A stretch of 64,000 nucleotides of DNA from Sporopachydermia quercuum (GCA_001599295.1 BCGN01000008.1:992001-1056000), one strand, 5' to 3'; positions 1,820-53,397 are shown, counted from the first letter of the stretch. The notes: generated by a model not told the origin, from the sequence alone. Numbers and translations: made by a program.

Positions 1820-2761
1820 ATGGCGTCTATATCAGGACAATCATTCACTACGAAAAGCAGTTTTAGTACTGATTATGCCGATGGTAGTCATGTTGTGAAT
1901 GTTAAGTTAAGATTAAATCTCAATGAACGTGAGATGGAAATGATCAGACGAACATGGACTCAAATGCTTAATGACGACGATACAGTAGCTTCCAGTTCGC
2001 AAAATTCTTCATATTCAGCAACACCTACAACATCAGCACCTACATCAAAAGTTTTCACAACAGCAAACTCATTATTTGTTCGCCAATTCTATGCTAACTT
2101 GTTATCCATGGATCCTGAGTTGGAAATCATGTTCCCCAGTATAAAAAGACAGGCTACATCGTTTGCGGGTGTTATGAGTACAGTAGTTGCACATTTAAGT
2201 AATGTTCAAATATTAGATGATTTTTTTGTTTCATTAGCATTAAGGCATTCTAGAATTCTTGGTATCGAAGTTCCTCATTATGAACTGATGGGCAAAGCAT
2301 TAATGAAAACATTCAGCGATAGATTTCAGGATGATTTTACTATTGAACTGGAAGAAGCTTGGATTAAAACATACTCATATGTTGCAAATAAACTACTGAT
2401 TGAAGGTCAAGATCCTTATCTACCTACAGTTTTGAGTAGGCAAGGACAGACTAATGCTATGGCCTCTAATGTTGTCAGAAGGGTTGATTCACATGTATCT
2501 CAACATTCGCAAATGTCAAGAATTAGTAGTGATTCCTCATCTATGATGACTGGAAGTATAAATACTGCATTATCTACTACTAACTCAAATACTGCTAATA
2601 TGTTTGCCAAGAGAACTACTTCTATATCAGGTGTTGACTCGAAACTGGGAACCAAATCGCACAACGGTGATAAAAGAATGCTGAACAACATGCTAAAAAA
2701 GAGCAAGGTTTCAGTCACTCGAGGTAAGCAGAGAACTAAAGAGGAATGTATTATTATGTAA
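1820..2761 (+). CDS. Single-domain globin-like heme protein (YNL234W-like) with Ser/Thr-rich linker and C-terminal CaaX motif CIIM
   Basis: Globin helices are recognisable: IRRTW (A), QFYANLL (TyrB10), IMFP (PheCD1), RQATSF (GlnE7), LALRH (HisF8), HYELMGKAL (G), EEAWIKTY (H). No FAD/NAD reductase domain. Confidence 0.88.
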   Translation: MASISGQSFTTKSSFSTDYADGSHVVNVKLRLNLNEREMEMIRRTWTQMLNDDDTVASSSQNSSYSATPTTSAPTSKVFTTANSLFVRQFYANLLSMDPELEIMFPSIKRQATSFAGVMSTVVAHLSNVQILDDFFVSLALRHSRILGIEVPHYELMGKALMKTFSDRFQDDFTIELEEAWIKTYSYVANKLLIEGQDPYLPTVLSRQGQTNAMASNVVRRVDSHVSQHSQMSRISSDSSSMMTGSINTALSTTNSNTANMFAKRTTSISGVDSKLGTKSHNGDKRMLNNMLKKSKVSVTRGKQRTKEECIIM

Positions 2762-4108: not shown

Positions 4109-6622
4109 ATGGAACAAGGTCATTCTGCTATTAGACAGAAGCCAAAGCCTGCTCCAATACACATTCCATCATTACCAGGAGTTACGTGCAAAGAACCACC
4201 AAATCTGAAACCTGGTACTCATAATCATTCACATACATTTTCAGCTCATTCAGTTTCTACTGTTGAATCAACTATCTCCTCAAATACAAGTCATCTGGAA
4301 GAAGTTGGCTCAGTGAACACATCGCCAGATCAATCAGTAGGCATCAACGAAGCTAGTGATTTTAATTTCAAATCAGCTACAGAATCTTTGACCACTGCAG
4401 CAACAAGTCTGAATTTAACCCTGAATCGTACTATTAAGACTGAAAACTACTGTGTTTATTATCAGAAAGCCGATCCTAAGAATAGCCACCAAATGTCATA
4501 TCCAAGTGGAGAGAGTACTAATGATAGTACAGTTAGTCGTATACTAAATGAAGAGGTTCCACTAACTCCAAGTACTGTTGAGGCAACCAATGATTTGATG
4601 CCGCATACTACTGGTTTTGATAAGGAAAAAAAGAATGAACAAGCAAATGAAAATGTGAAAGAGATTCTTAATGGCAGTAGTGGAAATGGCAACAATAATA
4701 ATGACANTGTCAGTGCTAACGGAAAAGAGCATAGTGCAGCTAATAAAGAAAATACTACTGCAGAGCCATCATCTCCCGGCAGTGCAATGTCTTATAACGT
4801 GATCTCTCAGTCATCTTCCTTCAATTCAATTCTTCCTTCTCCTAATGTAGAAGATATGATATCTGACAAAGCAAGTTTACTCAAACTTAGGGAGAGACCT
4901 GGTGCGCATTCTGTTAGTGGCATAGGAAATAACAGTACAACTAGCACTATTACAAATCGCACTATTGACACTACCACCAATAATAGCAGTAGTGCTGCTG
5001 CTTCTGCTTCTACTCCAAATGAATCTTCTTTCTCGTTCAGTCAGCATGGCACTGAGAATAAGCAAGACATCGAAGCGATTAGTGTTGTGTCTGCCTCTAC
5101 GTCATCTACCGGCTCCAGCAGTCAAAACTATAGAAGTATGCTTCCAGCTGCTCTCGATCGTAAAAGGAAACCTCCAGTATCATCAATTTCGGACTCCCCT
5201 GTGACAAGCTCTGCTGCAGCAAGTTATGCATCTCCTTCAAGTTCTTTTGCAGATCATTCAAGTACACCGACAACAGCTCCATCTGTTACCGGCTCTAAGC
5301 AAAAATCAAGTACCAAATCAAAGCTCTCAGGTGGGAGGCTGAAAAATATATTCAGGAAGAGACAGTCTTTTTCATCAGATTCGCTCCACACTGCATCAAC
5401 ACCTTCAATCCCTCATTCAATGAGCATTAATTCAATTTCTTCTTTCTATACAGCAGAGGAGATCAACGAGGCATTGACGCCAAATCTCGGTAAAGCAGAT
5501 CCAACCACGTTTTTCCAATCGCCTTTCTCCGATTCCTCTTCCATGGTGGATGCTTCAGTTCAACAATATAAATCAAATGCTGGGAGTGCTCATTCGCAAA
5601 CAGATAAGAGTGCAGTGACATCACCGAAACCAAAGACCTCAACTCCTAAAGAGAGAGCAAAATCCAAATTCAAGTTGCTTTCGAGAAAGTCACCTTCTTC
5701 ACTGTCAAGTGGTTCAATATCCATTTCTAGCCCTACGTTAATTTACCATCAACACTCAATACCGGTATCACCTACTAGGCCAGTTGGACCATCGTCAGTA
5801 ACCACCGGAGGATCTGAATCCTACCATGACGATAGTCACAGCCTGCATACTGTTAATAGTGCTGCCAGTGACACCAAATTTCCATCTTTTTTGAGGGAAG
5901 GCGGACCCTTGGATATCAACGCCATGAATACGATATTAGATAAGCCTAAATCACCTTTAATTCAAGCTAGNAGGCGTATGATTGGCTCAGACAATGATAA
6001 AATCGGATTCACTACAATTGCGAGTTCTATTCCAAGTACGCCTAAGTCGAATGGATCTCATAAATCCATTTTGAAGAATTCATATTACAGAAAGAATAGT
6101 CAAGATAGTGATGAGGATATTTCCGAATTTGCAGAATCGTTTATTTCCTTTGAAGATTCCAATCTTGATTTCTCGTTGGATCTGTCATTTGATTTGGATC
6201 TTGGTGATAGTGGTAATAAAACTAGTATGAATAGTGATACGAAGGACAGCTTTAGCGGCCAGAAAAAAGCTCCTGGTATTACATTTTTCTCTGATCCTAC
6301 TTCTGCTACTAATTTCAACACCAACAGCAACTCAACTGTTGGTAAGTCTATTGATGACAAAATACTGTCTCCTACGCTGATTGACCAAATACCGTTAAAC
6401 ATATCAAGTACATCATTATCTGCTCATGCTGGTGTTTCCTTTTCTTCCAAAGTGTTGCTATATGAGACATGGCCTACTGAGCTCTACGATAGAAAACCAG
6501 GACCTGCAACTTGTAATATGTTGACTCCAATGCTGGCCCAGGAAATCAAACATGAACTGAACATGCTTAAACTTGAAATGGCTGTCCACGAAGATTCTCG
6601 TGTATACACCCATTTCTTTTAA
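4109..6622 (+). CDS. BNI4: Bud-neck PP1(Glc7)-targeting protein Bni4-like
   Basis: Long Ser-rich disordered body. C-terminus GVSFSSKVLLYETW...YDRK...TCNMLTPMLAQEIKHELN..K.EMAVHEDSRVYTHFF has a VxF motif and a phactr-like tail. Confidence 0.8.
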   Translation: MEQGHSAIRQKPKPAPIHIPSLPGVTCKEPPNLKPGTHNHSHTFSAHSVSTVESTISSNTSHLEEVGSVNTSPDQSVGINEASDFNFKSATESLTTAATSLNLTLNRTIKTENYCVYYQKADPKNSHQMSYPSGESTNDSTVSRILNEEVPLTPSTVEATNDLMPHTTGFDKEKKNEQANENVKEILNGSSGNGNNNNDXVSANGKEHSAANKENTTAEPSSPGSAMSYNVISQSSSFNSILPSPNVEDMISDKASLLKLRERPGAHSVSGIGNNSTTSTITNRTIDTTTNNSSSAAASASTPNESSFSFSQHGTENKQDIEAISVVSASTSSTGSSSQNYRSMLPAALDRKRKPPVSSISDSPVTSSAAASYASPSSSFADHSSTPTTAPSVTGSKQKSSTKSKLSGGRLKNIFRKRQSFSSDSLHTASTPSIPHSMSINSISSFYTAEEINEALTPNLGKADPTTFFQSPFSDSSSMVDASVQQYKSNAGSAHSQTDKSAVTSPKPKTSTPKERAKSKFKLLSRKSPSSLSSGSISISSPTLIYHQHSIPVSPTRPVGPSSVTTGGSESYHDDSHSLHTVNSAASDTKFPSFLREGGPLDINAMNTILDKPKSPLIQAXRRMIGSDNDKIGFTTIASSIPSTPKSNGSHKSILKNSYYRKNSQDSDEDISEFAESFISFEDSNLDFSLDLSFDLDLGDSGNKTSMNSDTKDSFSGQKKAPGITFFSDPTSATNFNTNSNSTVGKSIDDKILSPTLIDQIPLNISSTSLSAHAGVSFSSKVLLYETWPTELYDRKPGPATCNMLTPMLAQEIKHELNMLKLEMAVHEDSRVYTHFF

Positions 6623-11744: not shown

Positions 11745-12345
11745 ATAACAGCGGCATTTGGTAAAGGCTACTTCTAGAAATCATGTTTTGTTAGTTACGT
11801 GATACCTATATATGGTTATGGAAGATTTTATTACCGATGATATGAAATGAGATGATCTACTCAGCTGGTTTTATCTGCTAAGTGAGCGTTGAGCTATGGG
11901 AGTGGCAGATAAGTGGCAATTCTACTACTGTGTATTATTACTGTTGATAGTTGATACTTTATTGCTGTGCTTACTACTATTAACTACTTTCGCTGTTACA
12001 TCAATATACAATATCAAGAGATAATTTTATTAGCCATTTAGAAAGAACATTAATAGTTAATCAAATAAATGGTTCTCAGTTCATAGGAACAAGACATTCC
12101 TTTAATACATTATGGAATAATAAATAGTAGTGGTAATAATATAATATAATATAGTAGTAATCAAAAAGAAACAGAAGATATGAGGGGCTCAGCATATAAA
12201 AGCAAGTACAGCAGAGCAGAGCAATTAGACAACAAAGGTATGTGTTCATAAAATGATGATAACGACAAATGACAATTCAACAAGAACATGACACTTAACA
12301 GCATCGAGTTCCAATTCTCACAATCTCCTTATTCAAAATTCTTTT

Positions 12346-15300
12346 TTATCCTTCAAATCCATCAACACGGAAAGTCCATTGGGAATTCTCAGCATTGAAA
12401 TCAATAAACTTAACTCCTTCAACTGTCTTTAATTTATCAATGAACTTCTTCATCCTAGGATGTGAAGCATCCTTGATGGGTTTCAGAGTTCCAACAGAAA
12501 CTGGATAAACATTTTCTAGGGTGATTTTGGCTGGAACATTTAATCCTTGTCCTTTAGGTGGTCTCATAGTATCATCTTTATAAATACAACATGATCGGTT
12601 TCTGAATACAACCACGTTATTACAAATGTCGTACAATGATTCGAGTGAAGTGAGATCAACAGGATTAAGAAATTCCACATATCCGAATCCTTTTCTCCCA
12701 ACTTTGAGGTTAAAAACGGCTTGTAATTGGTTAGTAGGGAGTTTTCGTAGTTTCGATAGCTTAGGAGATGTCCAATAGCCCAAATCATCAATGGACTCAT
12801 CATCGGGAATAGCATCTTCAGGATCCACAATTTTCTCGACAGGTTTCGTTGATTGTTGGGTATTTACAGTTTCAGCTTGAGACTCTGTTCTTGTTTCCGC
12901 TGAGTGTATGGGTTTTGAAAGGAAAGGATCTGATGCACCATTAGCTTTAGCATTGCTGTTATTGGCCTTAATGTTACCGTTGGTGAGATTGTTGATAGAA
13001 TTACCATTACTAGCTGTACCATTAATACTCAAGGTATTGTTCGATCGTCTTTCACTCATTTCTGGTTTACTGTTATCGTTATTAATGTTATTATAACCAC
13101 TGGTTGTTCTTTTGCTTGGCGAAATTGATTCAAGCTTCTTTTCAACATTCAACGGCATGCTAGTATTTGGTAGTGGTTGAGGCTCTAAACCAGAAGAGGT
13201 AGTACCATCAGTAGTGATGACAGCTTTCCTTTGACCAGGATTTTCAACACACTTCAGTATGTCTGTAAGGAAGAAATCCTTCTTGCCGTTATTCTGGATC
13301 ATCAAGTTCTTAATATTAGAATTAGATTTAGTGAAAATGCTCTTTGAATTGTTTCCATTCACCGGTCCGTTATCCACTCCCATACTACGTAATCGTGAAT
13401 ATTTCATAGACGATGAAAACAACATATTTAATTTGGATTCATGACTAGTGGTTGCACCGGCTTTCTTAACTTTTCCTGAGCTATCGAATAGTTTAGCAAT
13501 AGGTACGGTTTTCTTTCCTTGACCATAGCGAGGAGTCTTAATAATACTAGAAAGCAATGGGGTTTCGTAAGGGTTGGAATTCAGGTTGTAGTTATTGTTC
13601 CTGTTAAGGATTGAGCTTGACATTGAGGTGATACCGTTAAGACCCGTTTGAGTTCCATTAGGTTGAGTATTAGAGAAGGCTTGTTGCGCAGAAGTATTGA
13701 AAAGAGAGCCTGTTGGTTGGTTAGTCGTCAATGTTGATCCAAAGGTATTGTTCGGTGCCTGAGCAGCTTGCCCAATAGTGTTACTGGTCCCAAAACCTGA
13801 ATTGTTGTTATTAACACCTCCTCCAAAGCCTGTGTTGATACCTTGAGTTTTATTGCCGAACAATCCTCCACTGGTGCCTGCTCCAAGAACCGAATTATTG
13901 GTGATATTGTTATTATTGTTACCAAAAAGTCCCCCAGAACCAAAACCAGTGTTAGTCGTAGTAGTGTTATTAGTAGTATTGTTATTATTACCAAAGCCAA
14001 AACCCGTACCAGTAGTTGCTGGTTTGTTACCGAAAAGACCACCGGAGGCAGTATTAGCAGCTCCAAATCCTGTGCCAGTGGTGTTGTTGCTTGCAGCACC
14101 AGCATTGTTATTAGCACCAAAGCCACCGAACAAGTTTGGCTTGGCAGCACCAGTGTTATTATTGGCATTGCCAAACAGTCCACCGGTGGTAGAAGTAGTA
14201 CCAGTGTTATTACCACCAAATAATCCACCACCAGAGCCAAACCCTGTGGTGCCAGTACTGGTAGCGTTGTTATTGCTGCCAAATAACCCTCCTGCTGTAG
14301 TAGTTGGGGGATTATTGTTACTACCAAAAAGCCCACCACTGGGAGTAGCGTTGGTATTACTAGTAGTGCCTGCTCCAAATCCAAACGCTGGTTTGGCTGC
14401 ATTGTTATTAGCAGCTCCAAAGCCAAACCCAGTGCTGGTAGTGCTAGTGTTATTGTTGGTAGTATTACTGCCAAAAAGACCACCACCCGTGGTAGTATTG
14501 TTATTGCTACCAAATANTCCTCCACCAGAGGCACTAGTAGTAGTGCTACCGGTGCCAAAAAGTCCGCCTGGTTTGGCTCCAAAGGCAGAAGTGGTTTGAT
14601 TATTGTTATTTGTATTACCAAATCCAAAGCCGGTGGAAGTATTGCTATTGGCACCAAATCCACCAGTTGTTGAATTGCTACCAAAAAGTCCCCCGCTAGT
14701 AGTGTTAGATGTACTTCCGAACAATCCACCCGGTTTATTAGCAGTGCTACCAAATAAACCACCGGTGGTATTGGCAGCATTGTTATTATTGCTGTTGTTC
14801 ATGCCAAATAATCCACCTGAAGTATTATTGCTATTATTGGTACTACCAAAGAGCCCACCAGAAGTTGTACTGTTAGAGCCAAATGGAGAACTACTAGTAT
14901 TACCAAACTGCGATTGAGTATTCGATCCAAATCCAGTAGAACCAAAAGCTGAAGAACCAAATCCAGTGGATGTTGTATTGGTGTTTTGGCCAAATGGTGA
15001 TGTTGTGTTGTTATTACTGCCAAAGCCTGTTGCTGTTTGACCAAATGGAGAACTGCTGGTAGCTGCTGTGGAACCAAAAGTTTTGGCCCCACTGAATCCA
15101 AATGGTGAGTTACTTGTAGCTGTGGTACTTCCAAATCCAGTAGATGTTTGACCAAAAGGAGCGTTGGTGTTGGTGGTGTTGTTGTTTGCAGCTCCAAATG
15201 GAGAACTATTGTTACTATTCATATTTCCATCACTGAAAATTCTATTGTGACCGTAATCTTGGAATCGCAATTCTTCAAAGGAAAAATCCTTATACTCTGG

Positions 15301-15843
15301 CATGAATCCAATGCTTTGGTAACAATTCATAACACCTGCTACGTTATCTTTTTCGTTGAATGGTTTGAAAGGAACTGATCCTGTGCCATTGGTTTGGGTT
15401 CCGCTGACGGATTGGCCAAACACGGAAGCGGTATTAGTACTACCAAACGCTCCCCCGCTGGTGCTCCCAAAGCCACCAAATCCACTAGAAGGTTTTGACC
15501 CAAAGAATCCTCCCGTTGAGTTTGATGATGGTGTAGTAGGTTGCCCGAATGGACCCGATGCATTAGTATTGGTGGTACCAAAGGGAGCACTGTTAGTATT
15601 ACTGCCAAAGGGTGATGTGCTGGTGTTAGAGGACCCAAACAAACCTCCTCCGGTGTTGGCATTGGTAGAACCAAAAGGAGCACTTGTCGTGGTGGTATTG
15701 TTATTATTAGAATTAGAGAACAATGAGTTACCAAATGACATTGATCCAGTGTTATTATTGGTACTGGCTCCACCAAAAGGTGTATTGCTACTGTTGCTAG
15801 TAGTATTACTAGCTCCAAAGGAAAAGCTGGGTTTGCTGAACAT
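12346..15843 (-). CDS. NUP116: GLFG nucleoporin, Nup116/Nup100 type
   Basis: Many FG/GLFG repeats. GLEBS motif YQSIGFMPEYKDFSFEELRFQDY. C-terminal Nup98-type domain (YWTSP...VGRKGFGYVEF..PVDL...GQGLNVPAKITLEN...WTFRV). First ATG at 15843. Confidence 0.85.
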   Translation of the reverse strand: MFSKPSFSFGASNTTSNSSNTPFGGASTNNNTGSMSFGNSLFSNSNNNNTTTTSAPFGSTNANTGGGLFGSSNTSTSPFGSNTNSAPFGTTNTNASGPFGQPTTPSSNSTGGFFGSKPSSGFGGFGSTSGGAFGSTNTASVFGQSVSGTQTNGTGSVPFKPFNEKDNVAGVMNCYQSIGFMPEYKDFSFEELRFQDYGHNRIFSDGNMNSNNSSPFGAANNNTTNTNAPFGQTSTGFGSTTATSNSPFGFSGAKTFGSTAATSSSPFGQTATGFGSNNNTTSPFGQNTNTTSTGFGSSAFGSTGFGSNTQSQFGNTSSSPFGSNSTTSGGLFGSTNNSNNTSGGLFGMNNSNNNNAANTTGGLFGSTANKPGGLFGSTSNTTSGGLFGSNSTTGGFGANSNTSTGFGFGNTNNNNQTTSAFGAKPGGLFGTGSTTTSASGGGXFGSNNNTTTGGGLFGSNTTNNNTSTTSTGFGFGAANNNAAKPAFGFGAGTTSNTNATPSGGLFGSNNNPPTTTAGGLFGSNNNATSTGTTGFGSGGGLFGGNNTGTTSTTGGLFGNANNNTGAAKPNLFGGFGANNNAGAASNNTTGTGFGAANTASGGLFGNKPATTGTGFGFGNNNNTTNNTTTTNTGFGSGGLFGNNNNNITNNSVLGAGTSGGLFGNKTQGINTGFGGGVNNNNSGFGTSNTIGQAAQAPNNTFGSTLTTNQPTGSLFNTSAQQAFSNTQPNGTQTGLNGITSMSSSILNRNNNYNLNSNPYETPLLSSIIKTPRYGQGKKTVPIAKLFDSSGKVKKAGATTSHESKLNMLFSSSMKYSRLRSMGVDNGPVNGNNSKSIFTKSNSNIKNLMIQNNGKKDFFLTDILKCVENPGQRKAVITTDGTTSSGLEPQPLPNTSMPLNVEKKLESISPSKRTTSGYNNINNDNSKPEMSERRSNNTLSINGTASNGNSINNLTNGNIKANNSNAKANGASDPFLSKPIHSAETRTESQAETVNTQQSTKPVEKIVDPEDAIPDDESIDDLGYWTSPKLSKLRKLPTNQLQAVFNLKVGRKGFGYVEFLNPVDLTSLESLYDICNNVVVFRNRSCCIYKDDTMRPPKGQGLNVPAKITLENVYPVSVGTLKPIKDASHPRMKKFIDKLKTVEGVKFIDFNAENSQWTFRVDGFEG

Positions 15844-16845
15844 GTTTGGATGAATTACGGAAGCCAAGAGTTCAAACGTTCAAAGGTTCAAATAGTTGTT
15901 ACTGTCGCTGTAATCACTTCGATTGTACTATCAAATACTAATACTTGCCTTAGTTACGATTATTTCAATAAAATAACGCTATTAATGCTGCTTATATTAT
16001 GCTGTTATTTTATCCTCACTTTTGCAGAGTATATGATCAAATTAACACCAGAACGATATCGATCGCAAAACTTCGTTTAAGGTAAATCACAAAATATATA
16101 GAGATTCTTGTCTCTATTCCTGATAAACTACTGCTTTGTTTGATATTCAACTGTTTCTTCACACTGTAATTCAATGTATGTACTGATCAGTCAAACAATT
16201 AAAGTAATAACAGCAATGATACCATTCGGATCAACACAACAAACGTTTACACCAATTTCAATCAATGACAATCTATAGAACCAACCATTTAGATATGTTG
16301 ATTTTATCAATAACGTGTTTAATGCTGTTCGATTTGAGTGATAATTAATATATCTAATTGATATAACTAGCGTTTGATCTGGTTGTAAGAAGAAGAGTGT
16401 CATTGTTATGTCTTTTTGTTTGCCCTTTTCTTGTGTGGTAATAAAGTGTGGATTTTGTCCTACTATGAAATTGTGACATATCCAAAGTTTTGATTCCCTA
16501 AAAAAGCAATAGGGTATCACGTGATACAATGGTTTTGGAATTCGGAAATAATATGTTCTTACCCTGAGAATCGGAAATAATAAGAATAAAAATTGGCAGT
16601 ATCTCCAGGACAAAATGTTCGGACAATTTCTAACTCATTCATCTCATCTCTGTCCGGGAAGACGCGTTAAAAACGCCCCGGACGGGCACCTTCTGTTGAA
16701 CCTTTATGAAAAATAAATTCTCCGTTTCCATCAAATCATCATAAACTAATTAGAATGTTGATCTACAAGCTCTCATGTCTATTTTTGAGTAGTAAATATG
16801 ATTTTCTGATAAATTCAACATTCCTAGCTCATATTGTATTAGCTT

Positions 16846-19800
16846 ATGACTTCTGAGAAACGAAATATCCCAAAATCCACGTCCCTTCCTAAGAGTCATA
16901 ATATTGATACCTCCCCTATAGAGACATCAAGAGGATCGCCAGTTTATAGGCAACATAGCAATCAGACCTCAGTTGTTGCTGTCCCTTCGTCATCGTCACC
17001 AGTGAAGGAACTTGATTTATTAACCTCCTCGCCTGTGCAGATCAACAGATCGTACCACCAAAATTAAACAAAATGGCCGAGAATGGCAAATCGAGCAAAG
17101 TTGAGTACTCTCATGCATTATTATTCAAGTCAGTTAAACCTCGAGTGATTCCTTCGCCAGCTTCAGAACCTGGAAAGGATTCTAAAGAACTTTTTGCAAA
17201 TACATCTTCAAATGACTCTGCTGAATTCTCACAGTTTGCCTCTTCCTTGAGAGAGAAGTTTTCTTTCAAGCCTCGATCACCGTCACTCACACCTGGTCAG
17301 GAATCCAATGATGAGAGGGCACCAGTCAAAAATAATGAAGAGTCATTTGAGCTGAATCTTGCCAGATTAAAGAAGAGATTCCCTCATGTTAACGCTGCAG
17401 TTGTGTCATCAACACTAAGAATAACCAATAACTATGAAACAGCTTTCAGAAAGCTTGATGATGTGTACATTGCTAGAAAGCCAACAAATATCAAGACTGA
17501 GCCTGTAAAAGAGCTTCCGTCTTTAAAGCAGAATATGTCGCCAAAGAACAAAAGATCTTTAGCTGAAAAGTATGGATCAAGCAGTGCGAATGCCAAAGAA
17601 GAAATCAAACCAAAGAGAAGATTAGTCAAAGGCTCTGAACGTAATAGAGAAAGCTCGGTATCCAGCTCCAGTCATTCTACTCCTAATCCTCATATTTGTA
17701 TGCCTACCATTAGTAACTCCAGTAATACTGATATATCGAATACTAGGAAAGCTATTGATATAAACTCTGATTTAGAAGATGACGATTTACTTGAGTTGGA
17801 TCGCGAGATAATCGATTCTGACTCGGACTCTGATGCATCTGTTGAAGATAATGACAGTGCTCATGATTTCGATAAGAAGCTGATAAATTTTCTAAATACG
17901 GCTTCAGAAAACGATATAGCTAGTGTTGCTAATACTTCTGTTGAGACTGCCGATCTCATTATTTCAAAACGACCGTTTAACTCGATTGACGATGTTCTAG
18001 CTGTTGATAATAGCACCAATAAAAGAAGAGGTAGAACTTTAGGTACAAGGATTATTGAAGAATGTCATGATACTCTGAAAGGATATGAAGCTGTAGATAC
18101 CTTGATTAAAAAGTGTGCGGATTACGGAAACCAAATTTCCAAGGAAATGACCAAATGGGGCATAAACGTTGATGGTTCTAAAGGTGAGCTTGAAATAACG
18201 GAGCTTGATGGTATGGACGAAGATGTTAGTACTACCAGTATTAAGAACAAACCATCCTTAATTACTGAAAAGCCAAATATAATGGCCAAGAATTTCGATT
18301 TGAAAACGTATCAACTAATTGGTATAAGTTGGTTGTTTTTGTTATATCGCAAAGGTCTTTCGTGCATTCTTGCTGATGAAATGGGACTAGGCAAAACTTT
18401 ACAGGTTATTGCATTTCTTGCTCATTTGAAAGAATCTGGTTATCAAGGACCTCATTTAATTGTGGTTCCTGCCTCAACACTAGAAAACTGGTTACGTGAG
18501 TTTCAGAAATTTTGTCCTAATACATTATCCATTGAGCCTTATTATGGATCACAGAAAGAAAGAATTGATTTGAGGTATCGTCTGATGAATACCAAGTTTG
18601 ATATTATGGTGACTACCTATAATCTTGCTACGGGTGGCAAAAATGATGTTGGTTTCCTCAAGTCTTTTCAGTTCAACTGTTGTGTCTACGACGAAGGTCA
18701 TATGCTCAAGAATAGTGATAGTGAGAGATACAACAAGCTTATGAAATTGAGAGCGAAGTTCCGGCTGTTATTAACCGGTACTCCTTTGCAAAATAACTTA
18801 AGAGAATTGGTCTCGTTATTAGCCTTTATATTACCTAAGCTTTTCCAGGACAATCGGGATACGTTAAAGACGATTTTCAAAGCCAAATTGAAAACCACGG
18901 ATCAACAAAGTGGCTCAATTGTAAATGCTGCTTTTTTGTCGCAGGAGAGAATCACCAGGGCAAAGAGAATGATGACACCATTTGTTTTAAGAAGAAAGAA
19001 AGATCAAGTGTTGAAACATTTACCAGAGAAAACTCATAAAGTTATTTACTGCGAAATGGGCGAACAACAAAGAGCTATTTATAACGAACAGATAGCTACT
19101 GCGAAGAAAAATATCCAAGATAAAAAAGAAGGTATTGCCAATAATGGGTCATCCTCAAATGTTATGATGAGTTTAAGAAAAGCAGCAATTCATCAGCTGC
19201 TATTTAGAAACTTGTATAATGAAAGAATTTTGAGGAAAATGTCCAGACAGATTATGTATGAAGATTGCTATCAAGATGCAAATATGCAGTTTATATTTGA
19301 AGATATGGAAGTAATGAGTGATTACGAATTGCATTTGTTGTCCTGCAAATTCAAATCTATTTCAAAATTCAGACTGGTCAAAGATGAGTGGATGGATTCC
19401 GGTAAAGTGCAGAAGTTGAAGGAAATATTACAAGAAAGACTTGGTAATGGTGATCGTGTGTTGATATTCTCTCAATTCACCTTGGTACTAGATATATTAG
19501 AATCAGTATTAAGTACATTGGAGTATAAGTTTTTAAGATTAGATGGGTCAACTCCAGTTGATCAAAGGCAAGATTTGATAGATAAGTACTATGAAGATAA
19601 TACAATACCTGTTTTCCTGTTATCAACAAAAGCAGGAGGATTTGGAATTAATTTAGCATGTGCCAATGTTGTTGTTATCTTTGATTTGAGTTTCAATCCT
19701 CATGATGATAAACAAGCTGAAGATAGAGCTCATAGAGTAGGACAACAGAGAGAAGTTGAAGTTATAAGACTTGTGTGTAAGGATAGTATTGAGGAGAATA

Positions 19801-19916
19801 TTTTGGCGCTGGCCAATAATAAAATAGCTCTTGATCACCATGTATCTGGAGAAGAGGATCCTGAAGCTGAAACACAGAACATGTCATTAGTCAAGGAAAT
19901 GTTGTTTGGTAAGTGA
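16846..19916 (+). CDS. FUN30: SNF2-family chromatin remodeller Fun30/SMARCAD1 (main ORF 17073..19916; 16846..17067 is a probable N-terminus offset by one base)
   Basis: ILADEMGLGKT, DEGH, LLTGTPLQNNL, FLLSTKAGGFGINL, FNPHDDKQAEDRAHRVGQ motifs, plus a CUE-like segment (LKKRFPHV). Confidence 0.92.
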
Positions 19917-21622
19917 GATAATGCTTAGGGGTTTCATAAGAATGATAGATTCATTGATGAAACGGCTTTAGATGTAGTGATATAGATAGACTTTTTTATG
20001 GCATGTCTTTATACTGTTTTAAAAGTTAGTTATTGTGGTGGTAGAGGTATGACATTGGATATGTATAGAGAATGAATGATAAAGTATAACTCCTAGCACT
20101 GAAAGCAGCATAGAGAAGTTGATAATGTGGTAAGTGATTGGGAGATTGTAAAAGCTATTGGAGATTTAAGTTGCCATGCTAAAGCCTAGGAAATGAAAAC
20201 ACATAAAGGAGATCATCAAGAAGGAACTTCATATGTTCACTTTTTCAATCAAAATTGTTTCTTGTTCAGCTAATACTCCTATTCATTTCACCAGTTGCAA
20301 ACCTCTGAAAGAAGATATAACCCAGCTTTCTATGTTCTCTGTTGGATTATTGCTTTTATAAGAAACAACTGATGTTTCACCAGTGCTTTCAATTCTCCAT
20401 ATAAGGCACTATCGTCACGTGTGTCCGGGAAGACTGTTAGACAATTAAAGTTTTGTAGCTTGCATGCATTATTCATGCTGGAATGAAGCTTGTTTCAGAA
20501 CTGTATAATCGATCGAAACACAGTTGTCAGAGACAATATTACTGAAAATACACGAAGCAGAAAACATCATTTCACTTATCTATCGAACAATCATGATAAT
20601 CAACAAGTTTAAATTATCTTTTTCAGTAAGCTATGTCATCAATCAGCTCGTATATTCTTTCTTCTTACCATTATCCATAAGTCTGTCGAATCGCCCCCAT
20701 TATACCCCGCCTTCAATTTCATACTTCTAAGCTGGAAATCCTCAGCTTGACGCAGTAATTATGCATTATTTATGCAAAATTTCACTCCTTACTAACTATT
20801 AGTACATTTCCCTCATTCTTTCAACTAATCAGCAACCTACAAANATTTTACGCTCTGCGACAACTCAACAATATCCCACTTAAACCTGCGACAAATAACG
20901 CCAGCTTTGCTCCTTGAATACGTTACAGCTATTGCCTTTAGTTCCCATTAGTACTNATATCCTGGAAACAAACTCCGAACTACTTCCCCTGTCTGAAATC
21001 TTTCTTCGAACTTAATCCCTTTTNGTCTAAGACAATAAACTTTTTTCAAACCCTATTTTATCACTCACCGGATCATCTCAGAAAATTTATTTGAGAATAT
21101 CAGATAGGATGAATCATTTTTTCATTTTGGTACTATTTCTTTTTCTGTTCTGACGAAGGTATTATATCTAGTGATCTGTCTGATTGATGCTTGAACACTA
21201 AAGTACAATATTACAATATTCTGTCAGTCTTAACTCATTGTTTGTTCTCTATTAGATTGCAATAAACAGAAACAGTAGTAGAAAGTGGCAAGTTGATAGC
21301 AGCTGTGAAATTGGATGGAGTTAGGATAACGACATAATAGTTGGCTTGTCAAGCAAACTCCACATTATTTTTGCTAATAGGTTGTAAAATTGAAAGCTCT
21401 TACATACATCTTAGACGATCACACCTCAAGCTTTACCCTTAGATGCAAAGGTCTGGTGATAAATGCAAACCTATAGGATTTGTTCTTTCTGTGATGCCTC
21501 ATCCATCACTCAATTGAATTCGATAAAGAAAACACCCAAACTGTTCGATTAAGTACTATTATTGTTATTATTATTGTTGTTGTTATTATCGTTATAATTG
21601 TAATTATATCAGAACATTAACA

Positions 21623-23080
21623 ATGAGTCATATAAACAACTCAGATCCTCATATTCATGATCCGGATCCGTTAGATGATCCTACAGAGGTACCTCTTGAA
21701 AGCCTAACACATTCAGGTAGTGAATACACTGAAACCAACGACACCGTACCTGAGAGCACATCGCAAGATGCTGTCAGTGATGCAAGTGACAGCGATGATG
21801 ATTCAGACTTGATAATACATTCAGATCCTGAAACTGAACACTTTTTACCGCATGGCGTTAATGGTAGCTCTGATTCATTATCTAGCCTTATCAACAATAC
21901 TATCCCTATTAGGAATACTACTAGTTCTTCATTCATNACAAGATGGAAAGAGAAGTTTTTTGCATCGAAAGCCCAATTCTATGATCCAAATGTTGGTGTA
22001 TTATTGATGTTATTATCACAGTTTTTCAACTCGATTATGATTGTCACTTGCAAGTTGCTGGAAGATGACCCTTCCTCAACAGAGTCAATTCACCCTCTAC
22101 AAATCCTATTTGTTAGAATGATCATCACATATACTTTTTGCTTCTTATACATGAAAGCTACAAAAGTTCCTGATTGCGTTTTGGGTCCTAAAGGTATTCG
22201 TTGGTTACTAATGATAAGAGGCACTACTGGATTCTTTGGAGTCTTTGGTTTATATTATTCTCTACAATATTTGTCTGTTCCCGATGCAACAGTAATTACA
22301 TTCTTAGTACCTACGATGGCAGCCTTATTAGCATGGATTGTACTCAGAGAACGGTTCACATTGNTTGAGGCAGCTGGAGGATTGGTATCTTTACTGGGAG
22401 TTGTTATTATTGCTCGTCCTACTTTTATTTTCCATAACCGTTCTAATGAAGCAGAAGAAAGTGGGACCATTGATGATAGAGAAAAAGCAACAGCAGTAGC
22501 ATTGTTAGGAGTTCTTGGTGCATCGTCTGCTATGGTTTCTATTAGAAGCATAGGTAAAAGGGCTCATCCGTTGATCTCTGTGTCGTACTTTTCTGCTTGG
22601 TGCTGCCTAGTTTCTTTCTTCTCCTTGCTTTTCATTCCAGGGCTCAGTTTCAAGCTTCCCACCTCAATGAATCAATGGCTGTTGTTTGGATTACTTGGTT
22701 TTGCTGGGTTTTTCATGCAGTTTTGCTTAACTGCTGGTCTGCAAAGAGAGCGTGCAGGAAGAGCTGCTGCTGTTCTATACTGCCAGATGATATTTGCTTT
22801 GTTCTGGGAAGGCCTCATCTGGAACAAGTTCCCAGGGTTCTGGTCATGTGTTGGAGCTTTCATTATCATTGGCTCAGCTCTGACAGTCACATACTTCAAG
22901 CCAGTTATAGATCAGACAGGTAGACCTGTTCCTAACAGGAACAACCAAGCCGGTATTTTAGCGGTTGACGATGATGATAGAAATAGAAGTAATTCACTGA
23001 TTATCGAATTGGGATTACCGGTGAGTGTTGAAATGGAGACAATTGAAGAGAATGACAGGAAAGGGAAAGAAATTGTTTGA
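21623..23080 (+). CDS. EamA/DMT-superfamily membrane transporter (YMR253C/YPL264C-like)
   Basis: About 10 hydrophobic helices in two EamA repeats. HPLQILFVRM, RGTTGFFGVFGLYYSLQYL, GVVIIARPTFIF and TAGLQRERAGR motifs; acidic N-terminal tail. Confidence 0.88.
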   Translation: MSHINNSDPHIHDPDPLDDPTEVPLESLTHSGSEYTETNDTVPESTSQDAVSDASDSDDDSDLIIHSDPETEHFLPHGVNGSSDSLSSLINNTIPIRNTTSSSFXTRWKEKFFASKAQFYDPNVGVLLMLLSQFFNSIMIVTCKLLEDDPSSTESIHPLQILFVRMIITYTFCFLYMKATKVPDCVLGPKGIRWLLMIRGTTGFFGVFGLYYSLQYLSVPDATVITFLVPTMAALLAWIVLRERFTLXEAAGGLVSLLGVVIIARPTFIFHNRSNEAEESGTIDDREKATAVALLGVLGASSAMVSIRSIGKRAHPLISVSYFSAWCCLVSFFSLLFIPGLSFKLPTSMNQWLLFGLLGFAGFFMQFCLTAGLQRERAGRAAAVLYCQMIFALFWEGLIWNKFPGFWSCVGAFIIIGSALTVTYFKPVIDQTGRPVPNRNNQAGILAVDDDDRNRSNSLIIELGLPVSVEMETIEENDRKGKEIV

Positions 23081-23447
23081 AAGGTAGTTAGTAATGGCCC
23101 TTTTGTTAGTTAGAAGTTGATATGATAACTTTTTTTTATTGGTTCTTGGTAGACTCTGGTTTATAGGTGTTTAAGGTATTTTCAATAAATTGTAGCATTA
23201 TATGAATGAGTAGGAATATAATAGTAGTTGATTCAAATAACTAGCAACATACAACTGAAATAACATGTTTCTGTTTGAATGTAATTGGTGAATGGGTATC
23301 GATGTGAATACAGGTCTGACAATTATATTGTTTATATGTATATATTATAGAACAATCAAACATCTATAAACGCAATTGGATATCACATTTAACTTCAGCT
23401 TCTAATTAAATTAATTATTAAGGCGTAATCTAACTCTACGCTCCAGT

Positions 23448-24413
23448 CTAAATCAAAAGACCAATAGCCAAAGCAACAATACCGGACATCAAACCGGTAG
23501 ATATGCTGTTTTGTTGGCCAGCACCCGTCGATTCGGTTTCCTCCGATTCAGATGATGCAGATGCCGAGGAAGATGAGGATGAAGATAAAGCTACAGTTGA
23601 GCTCCATGAGGAAGATGACGATGTAGTTGACCTTGAACTAGTAGAACTGGAGGTGGTGACTAATGATGTTGTGTTGCTGGATGTACTGCTGGAGACAATA
23701 GATGTACTAGANCTACTGATAGAAGTTACTGTGGGAACGGTTGAATTAGTTGTAGGAATCACAATTGAGCTTGACTCTTCCGTAGTCGTTGATTCAGATT
23801 CAGTGGAAGTTGTATCTTCTTCTGAGGTAGTGGAAGTGCTAGATTCCTGAAAAGTAGTGATAGTACTTGATTCTTCAGAGGTAGCTTCTTCACTGGTAGT
23901 CTCTTCACTGGTGGTGGCTTCAGTGGTGGTTTCTTCTTCAGAAGTAGTTTCTTCACTGGTAGTCTCTTCACTGGTGGTTTCTTCTTCAGAGCTTGTAGAT
24001 TCAGTAGAAGACGTGCTGCTGGTACTGCTGGTACTGCTGGTACTGCTGGTACTGCTGATACTGCTGGTACTGCTGATACTGCTGGTACTGCTGATACTGC
24101 TACTGCTACTACTACTGCTACTACTACTACCACCAGCAACAGAGAAACCTGCATTAGAACAAGATGATTCAAAATTGTCTTTAGCTTCATCCGCATTGCC
24201 ATTTGGACATCTAGCGTCAAGACATTTTTCAATATCACCGCCATAAGATTCGCATAAACAGCTGAAATCGTTCAAGCCAGAACAATCACTTCCTTTACTT
24301 ACTTCTGCTACACATGCTAATACACATGCTGGTGGTGTAGCGGTAACTAATGATGCAAAATGTAATAAACCAATTGCTGTTGCAGCAATAGTTAATCTAG
24401 TTCCACAGCGCAT
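23448..24413 (-). CDS. CCW14: CFEM-domain GPI cell-wall protein (Ccw14/Ssr1-like), copy 1
   Basis: Signal peptide, TPPACVLACV 8-Cys CFEM domain, Ser/Thr/Glu-rich stalk and hydrophobic GPI signal. Confidence 0.85.
   Translation of the reverse strand: MRCGTRLTIAATAIGLLHFASLVTATPPACVLACVAEVSKGSDCSGLNDFSCLCESYGGDIEKCLDARCPNGNADEAKDNFESSCSNAGFSVAGGSSSSSSSSSSSISSTSSISSTSSISSTSSTSSTSSTSSTSSTESTSSEEETTSEETTSEETTSEEETTTEATTSEETTSEEATSEESSTITTFQESSTSTTSEEDTTSTESESTTTEESSSIVIPTTNSTVPTVTSISXSSTSIVSSSTSSNTTSLVTTSSSTSSRSTTSSSSSWSSTVALSSSSSSSASASSESEETESTGAGQQNSISTGLMSGIVALAIGLLI
23880..24130. repeat. Intragenic tandem repeats in CFEM gene 1 (ETTSE units; 9-nt TSS/ISS units; poly-Ser)
   Basis: (CTGCTGGTA/CTGCTGATA)n and TCTTCACTGGT repeats are directly visible. 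Confidence 0.85.
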
Positions 24414-52659: not shown

Positions 52660-53397
52660 TTAGAAGGCAAGACCAACGACAAAAACAACAAAAGCAGCAA
52701 ATGCGCTGGCACCAACTTGAACACCCATATTAGTAGATGCAGGAATAGTAATAGAAGGTTGAGCTTCAGATGTAGTACTAGTGGGAGCAGGTTCGGAAGA
52801 AGTGGGGGTAACAGAAGGAGCTTCTGATTCGGAGGAAGTGACAGGTACGGTTGCTTCAGAAGAAGACTCTTCAACAGAACTTGTAGCAGTTGCAGACTCA
52901 GACTCAGATTCAACGGTGGATGTGGCACTGGCAGTAGCAGATGAGCTGGCAGAGCTAACAGAAGTGATAACAGAAGAACTAGCAGAGCTAACAGAAGTGC
53001 TAACAGAAGAGCTAGCAGAGCTAACAGAAGTGCTAACAGAAGAGCTAGCAGAGCTAACAGAAGTGCTAACAGAAGCAGAACTACTTTCTGAAGAAGTAAC
53101 AGCAATACTGGATGAACCACCATTGATGTCTGCATCGAAACTTGAACAAGTTGACTCTAAAGCACTAATAGCTTCATCAGTGACACCGTCGGGGCAAATG
53201 TTTTTCAAACAAGAAACCAAAGCATCACCATCATTGGAGCATAAACATGGAATATCATTCATAGAGTTGCATTGGGATGATTCTCTGGTAACCTCATTGA
53301 CGCATGCTAATAAACAAGCAGGAGGTGTAGCAACAACAACTTGTGACAACAATGCAATTGTTGAAACTCCTAAGGTATAAACGACAGATGAACGCAT
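52660..53397 (-). CDS. CCW14: CFEM-domain GPI cell-wall protein (Ccw14/Ssr1-like), copy 2
   Basis: Signal peptide, TPPACLLACV 8-Cys CFEM domain, Ser-rich stalk and GPI signal. Confidence 0.85.
   Translation of the reverse strand: MRSSVVYTLGVSTIALLSQVVVATPPACLLACVNEVTRESSQCNSMNDIPCLCSNDGDALVSCLKNICPDGVTDEAISALESTCSSFDADINGGSSSIAVTSSESSSASVSTSVSSASSSVSTSVSSASSSVSTSVSSASSSVITSVSSASSSATASATSTVESESESATATSSVEESSSEATVPVTSSESEAPSVTPTSSEPAPTSTTSEAQPSITIPASTNMGVQVGASAFAAFVVFVVGLAF
52949..53076. repeat. 33-bp minisatellite (about 3.8 copies) encoding SSSVSTSVSSA
   Basis: AGCAGAGCTAACAGAAGTGCTAACAGAAGAGCT tandem units. Confidence 0.9.

Follow-up and report, generated by a model that had tools for sequence, protein, structure and literature searches.

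A globin of the YNL234W family with a predicted C-terminal prenyl anchor in the yeast Sporopachydermia quercuum

Globins that are fixed to membranes by N-terminal myristate and palmitate have been described from animals (globin X, PMC3176823; GLB-12, PMC4686822; PMC3520999). These reductase-free, hexacoordinate proteins have redox-sensing or superoxide-signalling roles, proposed or shown: GLB-12 of C. elegans signals via superoxide (PMC4686822), and for globin X signalling is only proposed (PMC3176823). In yeasts the globins of the YNL234W type have been catalogued by reference to flavohemoglobins (FHbs), as 'central-domain FHbs' (Vinogradov, 2006; PMC1457004) and as 'group 1, unknown N-terminal + incomplete FHb' (Hoogewijs, 2012; PMC3287990), the latter label implying that a FAD domain is retained. 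Ynl234w of Saccharomyces cerevisiae has further been catalogued as a heme b protein and is listed as 'cytosol' at 815 molecules per cell, against 31,688 for Yhb1 (PMC13722074). Here we describe a member of this family from Sporopachydermia quercuum, encoded at 1820..2761 on the forward strand of a 64,000-nucleotide stretch of DNA (GCA_001599295.1 BCGN01000008.1:992001-1056000), the whole of which is referred to as the window. The protein, of 313 residues, is a globin without a reductase domain that ends in a CaaX box, and the conservation of this ending together with the fractionation of the native S. cerevisiae orthologue suggests that it is a membrane-tethered, prenylated globin.

The globin and its family

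The frame from 1820 to 2761 is unbroken over 313 codons, forms a single exon and ends ...KQRTKEECIIM before the stop codon (protein P0001). The only Pfam match in the protein is PF00042 (Globin) at residues 90-191 (E 6e-11). The N-terminal extension (residues 1-27, 1820..1900) begins Met-Ala and so has no Gly2; it is weakly conserved and shorter than in most homologues. It is followed by a conserved pre-A segment and globin helix A (residues 28-54, 1901..1981), which include Trp46, kept in 137 of the 147 homologues introduced below, and then by a Ser/Thr-rich insertion of 23 residues (residues 55-77, 1982..2050) that varies in length and sequence within the family. Because this insertion separates helix A from the rest of the globin, the Pfam match covers only helices B-H (residues 78-196, 2051..2407). 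Within helices B-H lie TyrB10 (Tyr91, 2090-2092), PheCD1 (Phe105), GlnE7 (Gln111, 2150-2152), PheE11 (Phe115), HisF8 (His143, 2246-2248) and a Tyr at G5 (Tyr154). Sequence alignment to solved globins matches Tyr91, His143 and Tyr154 to Tyr29, His85 and Tyr95 of Vitreoscilla hemoglobin (Hb), and Gln111 to the distal Gln found both in Hell's Gate globin and in a cytoglobin chain. The labels B10, CD1 and E11 are those that we take to apply here. Positions follow Vitreoscilla Hb numbering, with G5 at Tyr95 and H12 at Tyr126 (PMC3962134), and the H23 column was set by ungapped extension from H12. Helix H is capped by a G-x-D-P motif (2405..2416), the Gly of which occupies the column of GluH23 in FHb-type globins; across the homologues the motif retains Gly in 135/147, Asp in 139/147 and Pro in 133/147. 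Beyond it are a disordered Ser/Thr-rich linker with no FAD- or NAD-binding domain (residues 202-289, 2423..2686), a basic patch with no second Cys (residues 290-309, 2687..2746) and the CaaX box, Cys310-Ile-Ile-Met, with its stop codon (2747..2761).

An AlphaFold2 model made from an alignment of 141 family sequences has helices at residues 36-54 and 78-196 and is confident from about 30 to 200, apart from residues 55-77. Residues 1-18 mostly have a predicted local distance difference test score (pLDDT) below 50, and beyond residue 196 there is no secondary structure and the pLDDT is about 50. The model matches the structures of neuroglobin and Hell's Gate globin I with Z scores of 18-20 and a root mean square deviation of 1.5-1.9 Å; a homodimer model of residues 25-205 with heme, for which no alignment was used, scored 0.00 and weighs neither way. 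The tail after the globin, about 110 residues long, is 29% Ser+Thr (31% over residues 201-289), in keeping with the Ser/Thr-rich linker that had been noted from the sequence at the outset. The protein is confirmed as a stand-alone 3/3 globin with TyrB10/GlnE7/HisF8, a disordered linker, a basic patch and a CIIM end. It shares its fold and these three residues with the flavohemoglobins Yhb1 and Hmp, Vitreoscilla Hb and Hell's Gate globin I, but lacks the FAD and NAD domains present in Yhb1 and Hmp, lacks GluH23, and has PheE11, a long A-B insertion and a C-terminal tether with a lipid signal.

A profile search matched 2614 proteins, and the best 150 of these together with a first search gave a family set of 158. 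Ten were dropped as multi-globin proteins with weak core scores (at most 61 bits, against at least 82 for the rest), one of them with Cys at position -4 from the end, leaving 147 homologues. Named members include S. arboricola YNL234W, Clavispora CLUG_00928 and C. glabrata CAGL0J07502g, and others come from Lachancea, Ascoidea, Nadsonia, Limtongia and Lipomyces. A search seeded with the Limtongia protein recovered only 14 proteins, all of the Lipomyces group, with no relatives outside budding yeasts among the matches listed. The 313-residue globin is 49% identical to S. arboricola YNL234W over 116 residues (E 3e-39) and 23% identical to the FHb of its own genome over 81 residues (E 2e-05). In a quick tree of globin cores (149 rows, 121 columns, many unresolved forks) it is nested with S. 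arboricola YNL234W and Clavispora CLUG_00928 in a 130-row clade with a support of 97 in the Shimodaira-Hasegawa-like approximate likelihood ratio test (SH-aLRT). On sequence grounds, then, it is a member of the YNL234W family of Saccharomycotina globins. Pfam, the model and the alignment agree on a central globin domain of the F family between extensions that have no relatives among other proteins, and this layout and the CaaX-type end are shared with the family, from which the S. quercuum protein differs in its short N-terminus, in Tyr for Phe at G5, in Arg for His at E6 (His in 132/147 homologues) and in Val for Cys at residue 87. HisF8 is present in 147/147. Recombinant Ynl234w, in work attributed to Sartori in 1999, reportedly has mainly low-spin heme; low oxygen as well as stress is said to induce the protein, and a deletion strain to show no phenotype.

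No FAD or NAD family was matched by Pfam in any of 109 scanned homologues, all of which match Globin, or in the 313-residue globin itself; the true FHb of the same genome, serving as a positive control, does match both. This is in agreement with PMC1457004, where likewise no reductase similarity is reported in central-domain FHbs. As judged from these profiles the YNL234W family is reductase-free and the picture of a retained FAD domain (PMC3287990) is not borne out, a result that questions the 2012 description and not the family membership of the 313-residue globin. Pfam, alignment and model thus agree with the original prediction in its account of a stand-alone globin with TyrB10/GlnE7/HisF8 and no reductase. 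Its statement that no functional description was known in yeasts needs qualification: the family has been catalogued (PMC1457004, PMC3287990, PMC13722074), but no CaaX, membrane attachment or function was found in the parts of these and other printed sources that were covered. CaaX is not mentioned in the main text of PMC3287990, nor in the available part of PMC1457004. The family is therefore already known, and the new part is the conservation of the CaaX box and the evidence for a membrane anchor.

The CaaX tail and the membrane

Cys at -4 is found in 114 of the 147 homologues, with Ile, Val or Leu at a2 in all 114 and Met at X in 88, and a CaaX was also found in 13 of 14 additional proteins from a Saccharomyces-centred search, the lone exception being truncated. 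On the quick core tree such ends are spread over all parts, the deepest branches included, and they range from the Lipomyces group to Saccharomyces. Conservation, taken as the share of a column filled by its commonest residue, is 0.64 for the core and 0.60 for the CaaX columns, against 0.16 for the linker, and so the ending has been conserved while the linker diverged, as would be anticipated for a working CaaX box. The 20 residues ahead of the CaaX in the S. quercuum protein contain seven Lys or Arg and two Asp or Glu (net +5), bearing out the polybasic stretch first noticed there; the basic residues are dispersed and form no K-Ras-type run. Across the family a net charge of +4 or more directly before the CaaX occurs in 76/114, compared with 21/114 and 5/114 in the two preceding segments of 20 residues. 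A second Cys within the eight residues before the CaaX occurs in 0/114, and Gly2 in 4/147. Among 22 ORFs (open reading frames) of at least 150 residues in the window, only this globin has Cys at -4, and CaaX proteins have been estimated at 1-2% of proteomes (PMC10541624). These two rates, set against the 114 of 147 homologues, make the CaaX more than a chance occurrence. The layout of folded domain, variable linker, basic patch and CaaX is that of polybasic-CaaX proteins of the K-Ras4B type, yeast Rho GTPases and Chs4, the last having the same basic-cluster-plus-CAAX arrangement, although here the cargo is a heme domain and the basic residues are scattered.

Alternative splicing of the tail is unlikely. 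One donor-like site (2724) stands ahead of the CaaX codons, with no branch match after it up to 3300; a branch-like match near 2578 has no partner, there being no donor-like site between 1469 and 2724.

The sequence CIIM is scored as prenylated by three of four predictors and as cleaved by two of two in a table of PMC9231725, in which CSIM is functional on a-factor. CIIM is also the native ending of a yeast Rho GTPase, and yeast geranylgeranyltransferase I (GGTase-I) accepts X=Met as well (PMC11304957), so that the lipid on Cys310 could be farnesyl or geranylgeranyl. The original assignment of X=Met to farnesyltransferase is thereby loosened: farnesyl is still the most likely lipid, but with this cross-acceptance the result from a ram1 mutant could be misleading if taken by itself. 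In the genome there are three full-length matches to prenyltransferases (PF00432), not individually assigned. Given the conserved motif, prenylation of the 313-residue globin at Cys310 is very probable.

Five full-length Saccharomyces proteins and the S. arboricola protein end in CSIM. Since these relatives do so and the S. cerevisiae protein has the equal length of 426 residues, Ynl234w most likely ends in CSIM too. A frameshift allele of S. cerevisiae has been reported with 86 new residues, 70 of them added to the 426-residue protein (PMC4494051). By subtraction this allele would replace the last 16 residues, and so remove the CaaX, which would make it a natural test allele. De novo gain of the tail in S. 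cerevisiae was considered and rejected, as the 426-residue form is ancestral and the longer form a polymorphic frameshift (PMC4494051).

Among the 33 homologues with no CaaX, 19 have a C-terminal tail with a net charge of at least +4, compared with 7/33 and 4/33 in the earlier segments and with 3 of 22 window ORFs as a control. Tails that are both basic and aromatic were noted, for example, in P0142, P0145, P0151, P0153, P0136, P0129, P0116, P0146 and P0058, several of them in clades of their own. The composition of such tails suggests that these members may be held at membranes by other means, without lipid. Two paralogues of Lachancea fermentati, P0018 and P0205, are nearly identical in their pre-terminal sequence, one with a CaaX and the other without, which represents a recent loss of the CaaX after duplication.

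Evidence on location comes from a fractionation of untagged yeast (PMC12672650). Its reference database gives 'cytosol' for Ynl234w, drawing on a GFP (green fluorescent protein) fusion collection, whereas supplement 11 of the same study records a cytosolic pool of 0 for the native protein (standard deviation 0, 6 replicates) and lists neither a signal or transit peptide nor a transmembrane segment for it. Across the three control maps Ynl234w has no cytosol signal and peaks at 12,000-24,000 g. We compared its profile, as unweighted intensities from these data, with those of 11 hand-picked marker proteins. The correlation (r) was 0.99 with Kex2, 0.96 with Pep12, 0.86 with Mnn9, 0.82 with Ydj1, 0.11 with Vph1 and 0.02 with Doa10, and -0.04 with Rho3, -0.16 with Sec61, -0.17 with Pma1, -0.47 with Ras2 and -0.68 with Yhb1. 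As the cytosolic pool is 0 and the profile tracks Kex2 and Pep12 and not Pma1, Ras2 or Rho3, native Ynl234w looks, on low counts, to be particulate and late-Golgi/endosome-like, and not to be at the plasma membrane. The fusion collection carries its tags at the C-terminus, where they would mask a CaaX. Masking of the anchor in this way may explain why Ynl234w was filed as cytosolic, and tag-based surveys may have misplaced it. No classifier call for Ynl234w was found in supplement 15 of PMC12672650, which has no row for it by name or accession. The Ras-like targeting to the plasma membrane that had been envisaged for the S. quercuum protein is thus not mirrored by the S. cerevisiae orthologue, which fractionates apart from Ras2 and Rho3; what stands is a probable attachment to a membrane as such. 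The net charge before the CaaX is +5 in the 313-residue globin and +2 to +6 in the Saccharomyces tails, and the globin may occupy the same compartment as Ynl234w or another. We consider it likely that it is tethered to a membrane through its prenyl group.

The heme pocket and alternative explanations

All three of TyrB10, GlnE7 and HisF8 are found in 136 of the 147 homologues, which implies that a gas-binding pocket has been retained. GlnE7 is found in 139/147 and none of the exceptions has His. The nearest solved sequences are those of bacterial single-domain FHb-like globins, in agreement with the earlier description of the TyrB10/GlnE7 pocket as flavohemoglobin-like. A clade of five (P0069, P0087, P0098, P0115 and P0122; SH-aLRT 99) has Leu for TyrB10 and Val, Ile or Ala for GlnE7 and keeps HisF8 and the CaaX; from these replacements it is probably a hydrophobic-pocket version with different ligand chemistry.

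On the proximal side, Vitreoscilla Hb has a HisF8-GluH23-TyrG5 network, and replacement of its TyrG5 by Phe nearly abolishes both NO (nitric oxide) dioxygenase activity and the stable oxy form (PMC3962134). In the YNL234W family G5 is Phe in 134/147, the H23 column is Gly in 135/147 and Glu in 0/147, and a bulky PheE11 is found in 101/147. The want of the proximal His-Glu-Tyr network in most of the family favours an O2 or redox sensor over an NO scavenger. A search of the genome (16.4 Mb, 15 contigs) found two globin matches, the 313-residue globin and a complete flavohemoglobin of 409 residues with globin, FAD and NAD domains on another contig (contig C7, L001, 766-1995, minus strand). The N-terminal extension of this FHb is basic and hydroxyl-rich and has, by eye, the look of a mitochondrial presequence. 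The FHb can cover NO detoxification, and with the reductase-free architecture and the low abundance its presence makes bulk NO removal the weaker reading of the YNL234W-type globin.

The best explanation, in which we place about even confidence, is that of a prenyl-anchored, flexibly tethered O2/redox module. The globin would be prenylated at Cys310, most likely with farnesyl and possibly with geranylgeranyl, then trimmed and methylated, and lipid and basic patch together would hold it against an anionic membrane, on the side that faces the cytosol. This membrane would be late Golgi, endosome or secretory vesicle in S. cerevisiae, and possibly the plasma membrane where the tail is more basic. 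The heme domain, on its flexible tether of about 110 residues, would bind O2 at the TyrB10/GlnE7 pocket, its iron being oxidised to the ferric and reduced to the ferrous state in turn. The electrons for this would be supplied by a separate reductase in the membrane, for which we propose a partner such as the cytochrome b5 system (16 cytochrome b5-domain matches are present in the genome). An oxygen or redox signal might then be passed to nearby membrane proteins, as is thought for the N-acylated animal globins; by this analogy a sensing or redox-signalling role stands at roughly an even chance. Of the original suggestion of an O2/NO sensor or scavenger that needs a separate reductase, the lack of a reductase domain is upheld, and the NO scavenger is disfavoured by PheG5 and the missing GluH23 in the family.

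Several points weigh against this explanation. The S. quercuum globin itself has TyrG5, as do two near relatives, and it has a Glu one position before its Gly in the H23 column, a feature common to it, P0104 and P0114; from these residues its site may resemble that of FHb-type globins more than is the case for the rest of its family. Apart from analogy, the case for a sensor depends on a single mutant, that of a distantly related bacterial globin. As regards the tail, 33 of 147 homologues have no CaaX, and while some of these are truncated models several are whole small clades; the CaaX state needs at least 16 changes on the quick core tree; and in the Lipomyces group only 7/14 have it, five proteins stopping just after helix H and two ending otherwise. 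The fractionation signal of Ynl234w is weak, at 0-6 spectra per fraction with missing values and 11 markers only, and it also tracks Ydj1, a mostly non-membrane chaperone; large complexes pelleting in the same fractions could mimic the profile.

The alternative that survives best, though we hold it to be unlikely, is a membrane-tethered NO dioxygenase or scavenger that turns NO into nitrate at the bilayer, in which NO accumulates, with the help of a separate reductase, as a backup to the soluble flavohemoglobin. Such an enzyme would suit the shared TyrB10/GlnE7/HisF8, the resemblance to bacterial single-domain FHb-like globins and the TyrG5 retained in S. quercuum. It fits poorly with the Phe at G5 and the absence of GluH23 through the family, given the effect of the corresponding mutation in Vitreoscilla Hb (PMC3962134), and with the bulky PheE11, the complete FHb in the same genome and the scarcity of Ynl234w relative to Yhb1 (PMC13722074).

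Less likely still is a handler of O2 or heme at the membrane that does no signalling and either feeds membrane oxygenases at low oxygen or shields lipids from oxidation. Lipid protection is among the roles proposed for globin X (PMC3176823), Vitreoscilla Hb binds lipids and hands O2 to oxidases (PMC3962134), and expression of YNL234W falls to 0.35 in a hap1 deletion (PMC13722074). Set against this, the abundance of Ynl234w is very low for a bulk carrier, its profile is unlike those of the endoplasmic reticulum (ER) markers Sec61 and Doa10 while the sterol and sphingolipid oxygenases are in the ER (PMC13722074), and the five-member clade that has lost TyrB10 and GlnE7 still has HisF8 and the CaaX.

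It is improbable that the prenyl group serves contact with proteins, as in Ydj1, so that the globin pellets as a large complex and not on a membrane. The resemblance of the Ynl234w profile to that of Ydj1, the lack of a palmitoylation Cys in all 114 CaaX homologues and the only moderately basic Saccharomyces tails would agree with this, but Ydj1 has a clear cytosolic pool and Ynl234w has none (PMC12672650), the CaaX motifs are fully canonical and cleavable with a basic patch beside them, and homologues that lack the CaaX tend to retain basic and aromatic tails. Finally, that the CaaX is incidental or unused, in a globin that is cytosolic as annotated in PMC13722074 and the reference database of PMC12672650 and whose S. 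cerevisiae gene segregates the frameshift allele (PMC4494051 Table 1), is very improbable in view of the conserved CaaX beside a divergent linker, the measured cytosolic pool of 0 and the reliance of that database on the tagged collection.

Neighbouring genes and implications

Right after the globin gene is a low-complexity ORF of 837 residues with no Pfam match (4109-6622, forward strand). Its last 65 or so residues seem to resemble the C-terminus of Bni4. BNI4 is YNL233W, the neighbour of YNL234W (PMC2139831), and the pairing of the globin with this ORF may therefore be very old synteny. Upstream is a short-chain dehydrogenase gene (PF00106; 133-768 and 875-1042, forward strand), whose GT-AG intron at 769-874 illustrates the splice signals of the host and whose second exon is open in frame. 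A RasGAP-domain protein of 1118 residues (PF00616; 8388-11744, forward strand), which we take to be Bud2-like, lies two genes from the globin. Two CFEM-domain proteins (PF05730) with Ser/Thr-rich stalks and hydrophobic ends are encoded on the minus strand at 23448-24413 and 52660-53397. CFEM proteins include fungal heme-uptake proteins.

Compared with the N-acylated animal globins, the S. quercuum protein is likewise reductase-free and, as predicted, lipid-fixed, but its anchor would be a C-terminal prenyl group with a basic patch in place of N-terminal myristate and palmitate, and it has GlnE7/TyrB10, no distal HisE7 and no Gly2. It belongs to a separate lineage, and membrane anchoring in the two would thus be a case of convergence. 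No prenylated globin was found for any organism in the literature covered, which includes few subscription papers, and the motif may already be recorded in prediction databases with no remark on it. A lipid anchor is likewise not mentioned in the accessible parts of the literature on YNL234W, which is unnamed in the main text and eight of nine supplements of PMC9231725, in a supplement of PMC10320760 and in the main texts of PMC11304957 and PMC1847700.

Tentatively, and with somewhat less than even confidence in the whole, we propose that budding yeasts have had a prenylated globin since near their origin, a local O2/redox signalling enzyme at late-Golgi/endosomal or plasma membranes that arose independently of the animal myristoylated globins, and that Ynl234w has been misfiled as a cytosolic broken FHb since its anchor is hidden by tags at the C-terminus. 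For a heme protein that has stayed uncharacterised in the best-studied of eukaryotes, this would supply a cellular location and a test by change of a single residue (Cys to Ser). The label 'incomplete flavohemoglobin' would give way, for a family found in most budding yeasts, to a globin with a flexible tether and a prenyl anchor. If this is true, neither a prenylated globin nor a fungal globin with a lipid anchor would have been known before, as far as we found in the literature, and membrane globins would have arisen by two independent routes, the other being N-acylation in animals. The globin would also be a candidate O2/redox sensor of yeast membranes, separate from Hap1 and from the sensing of sterols.
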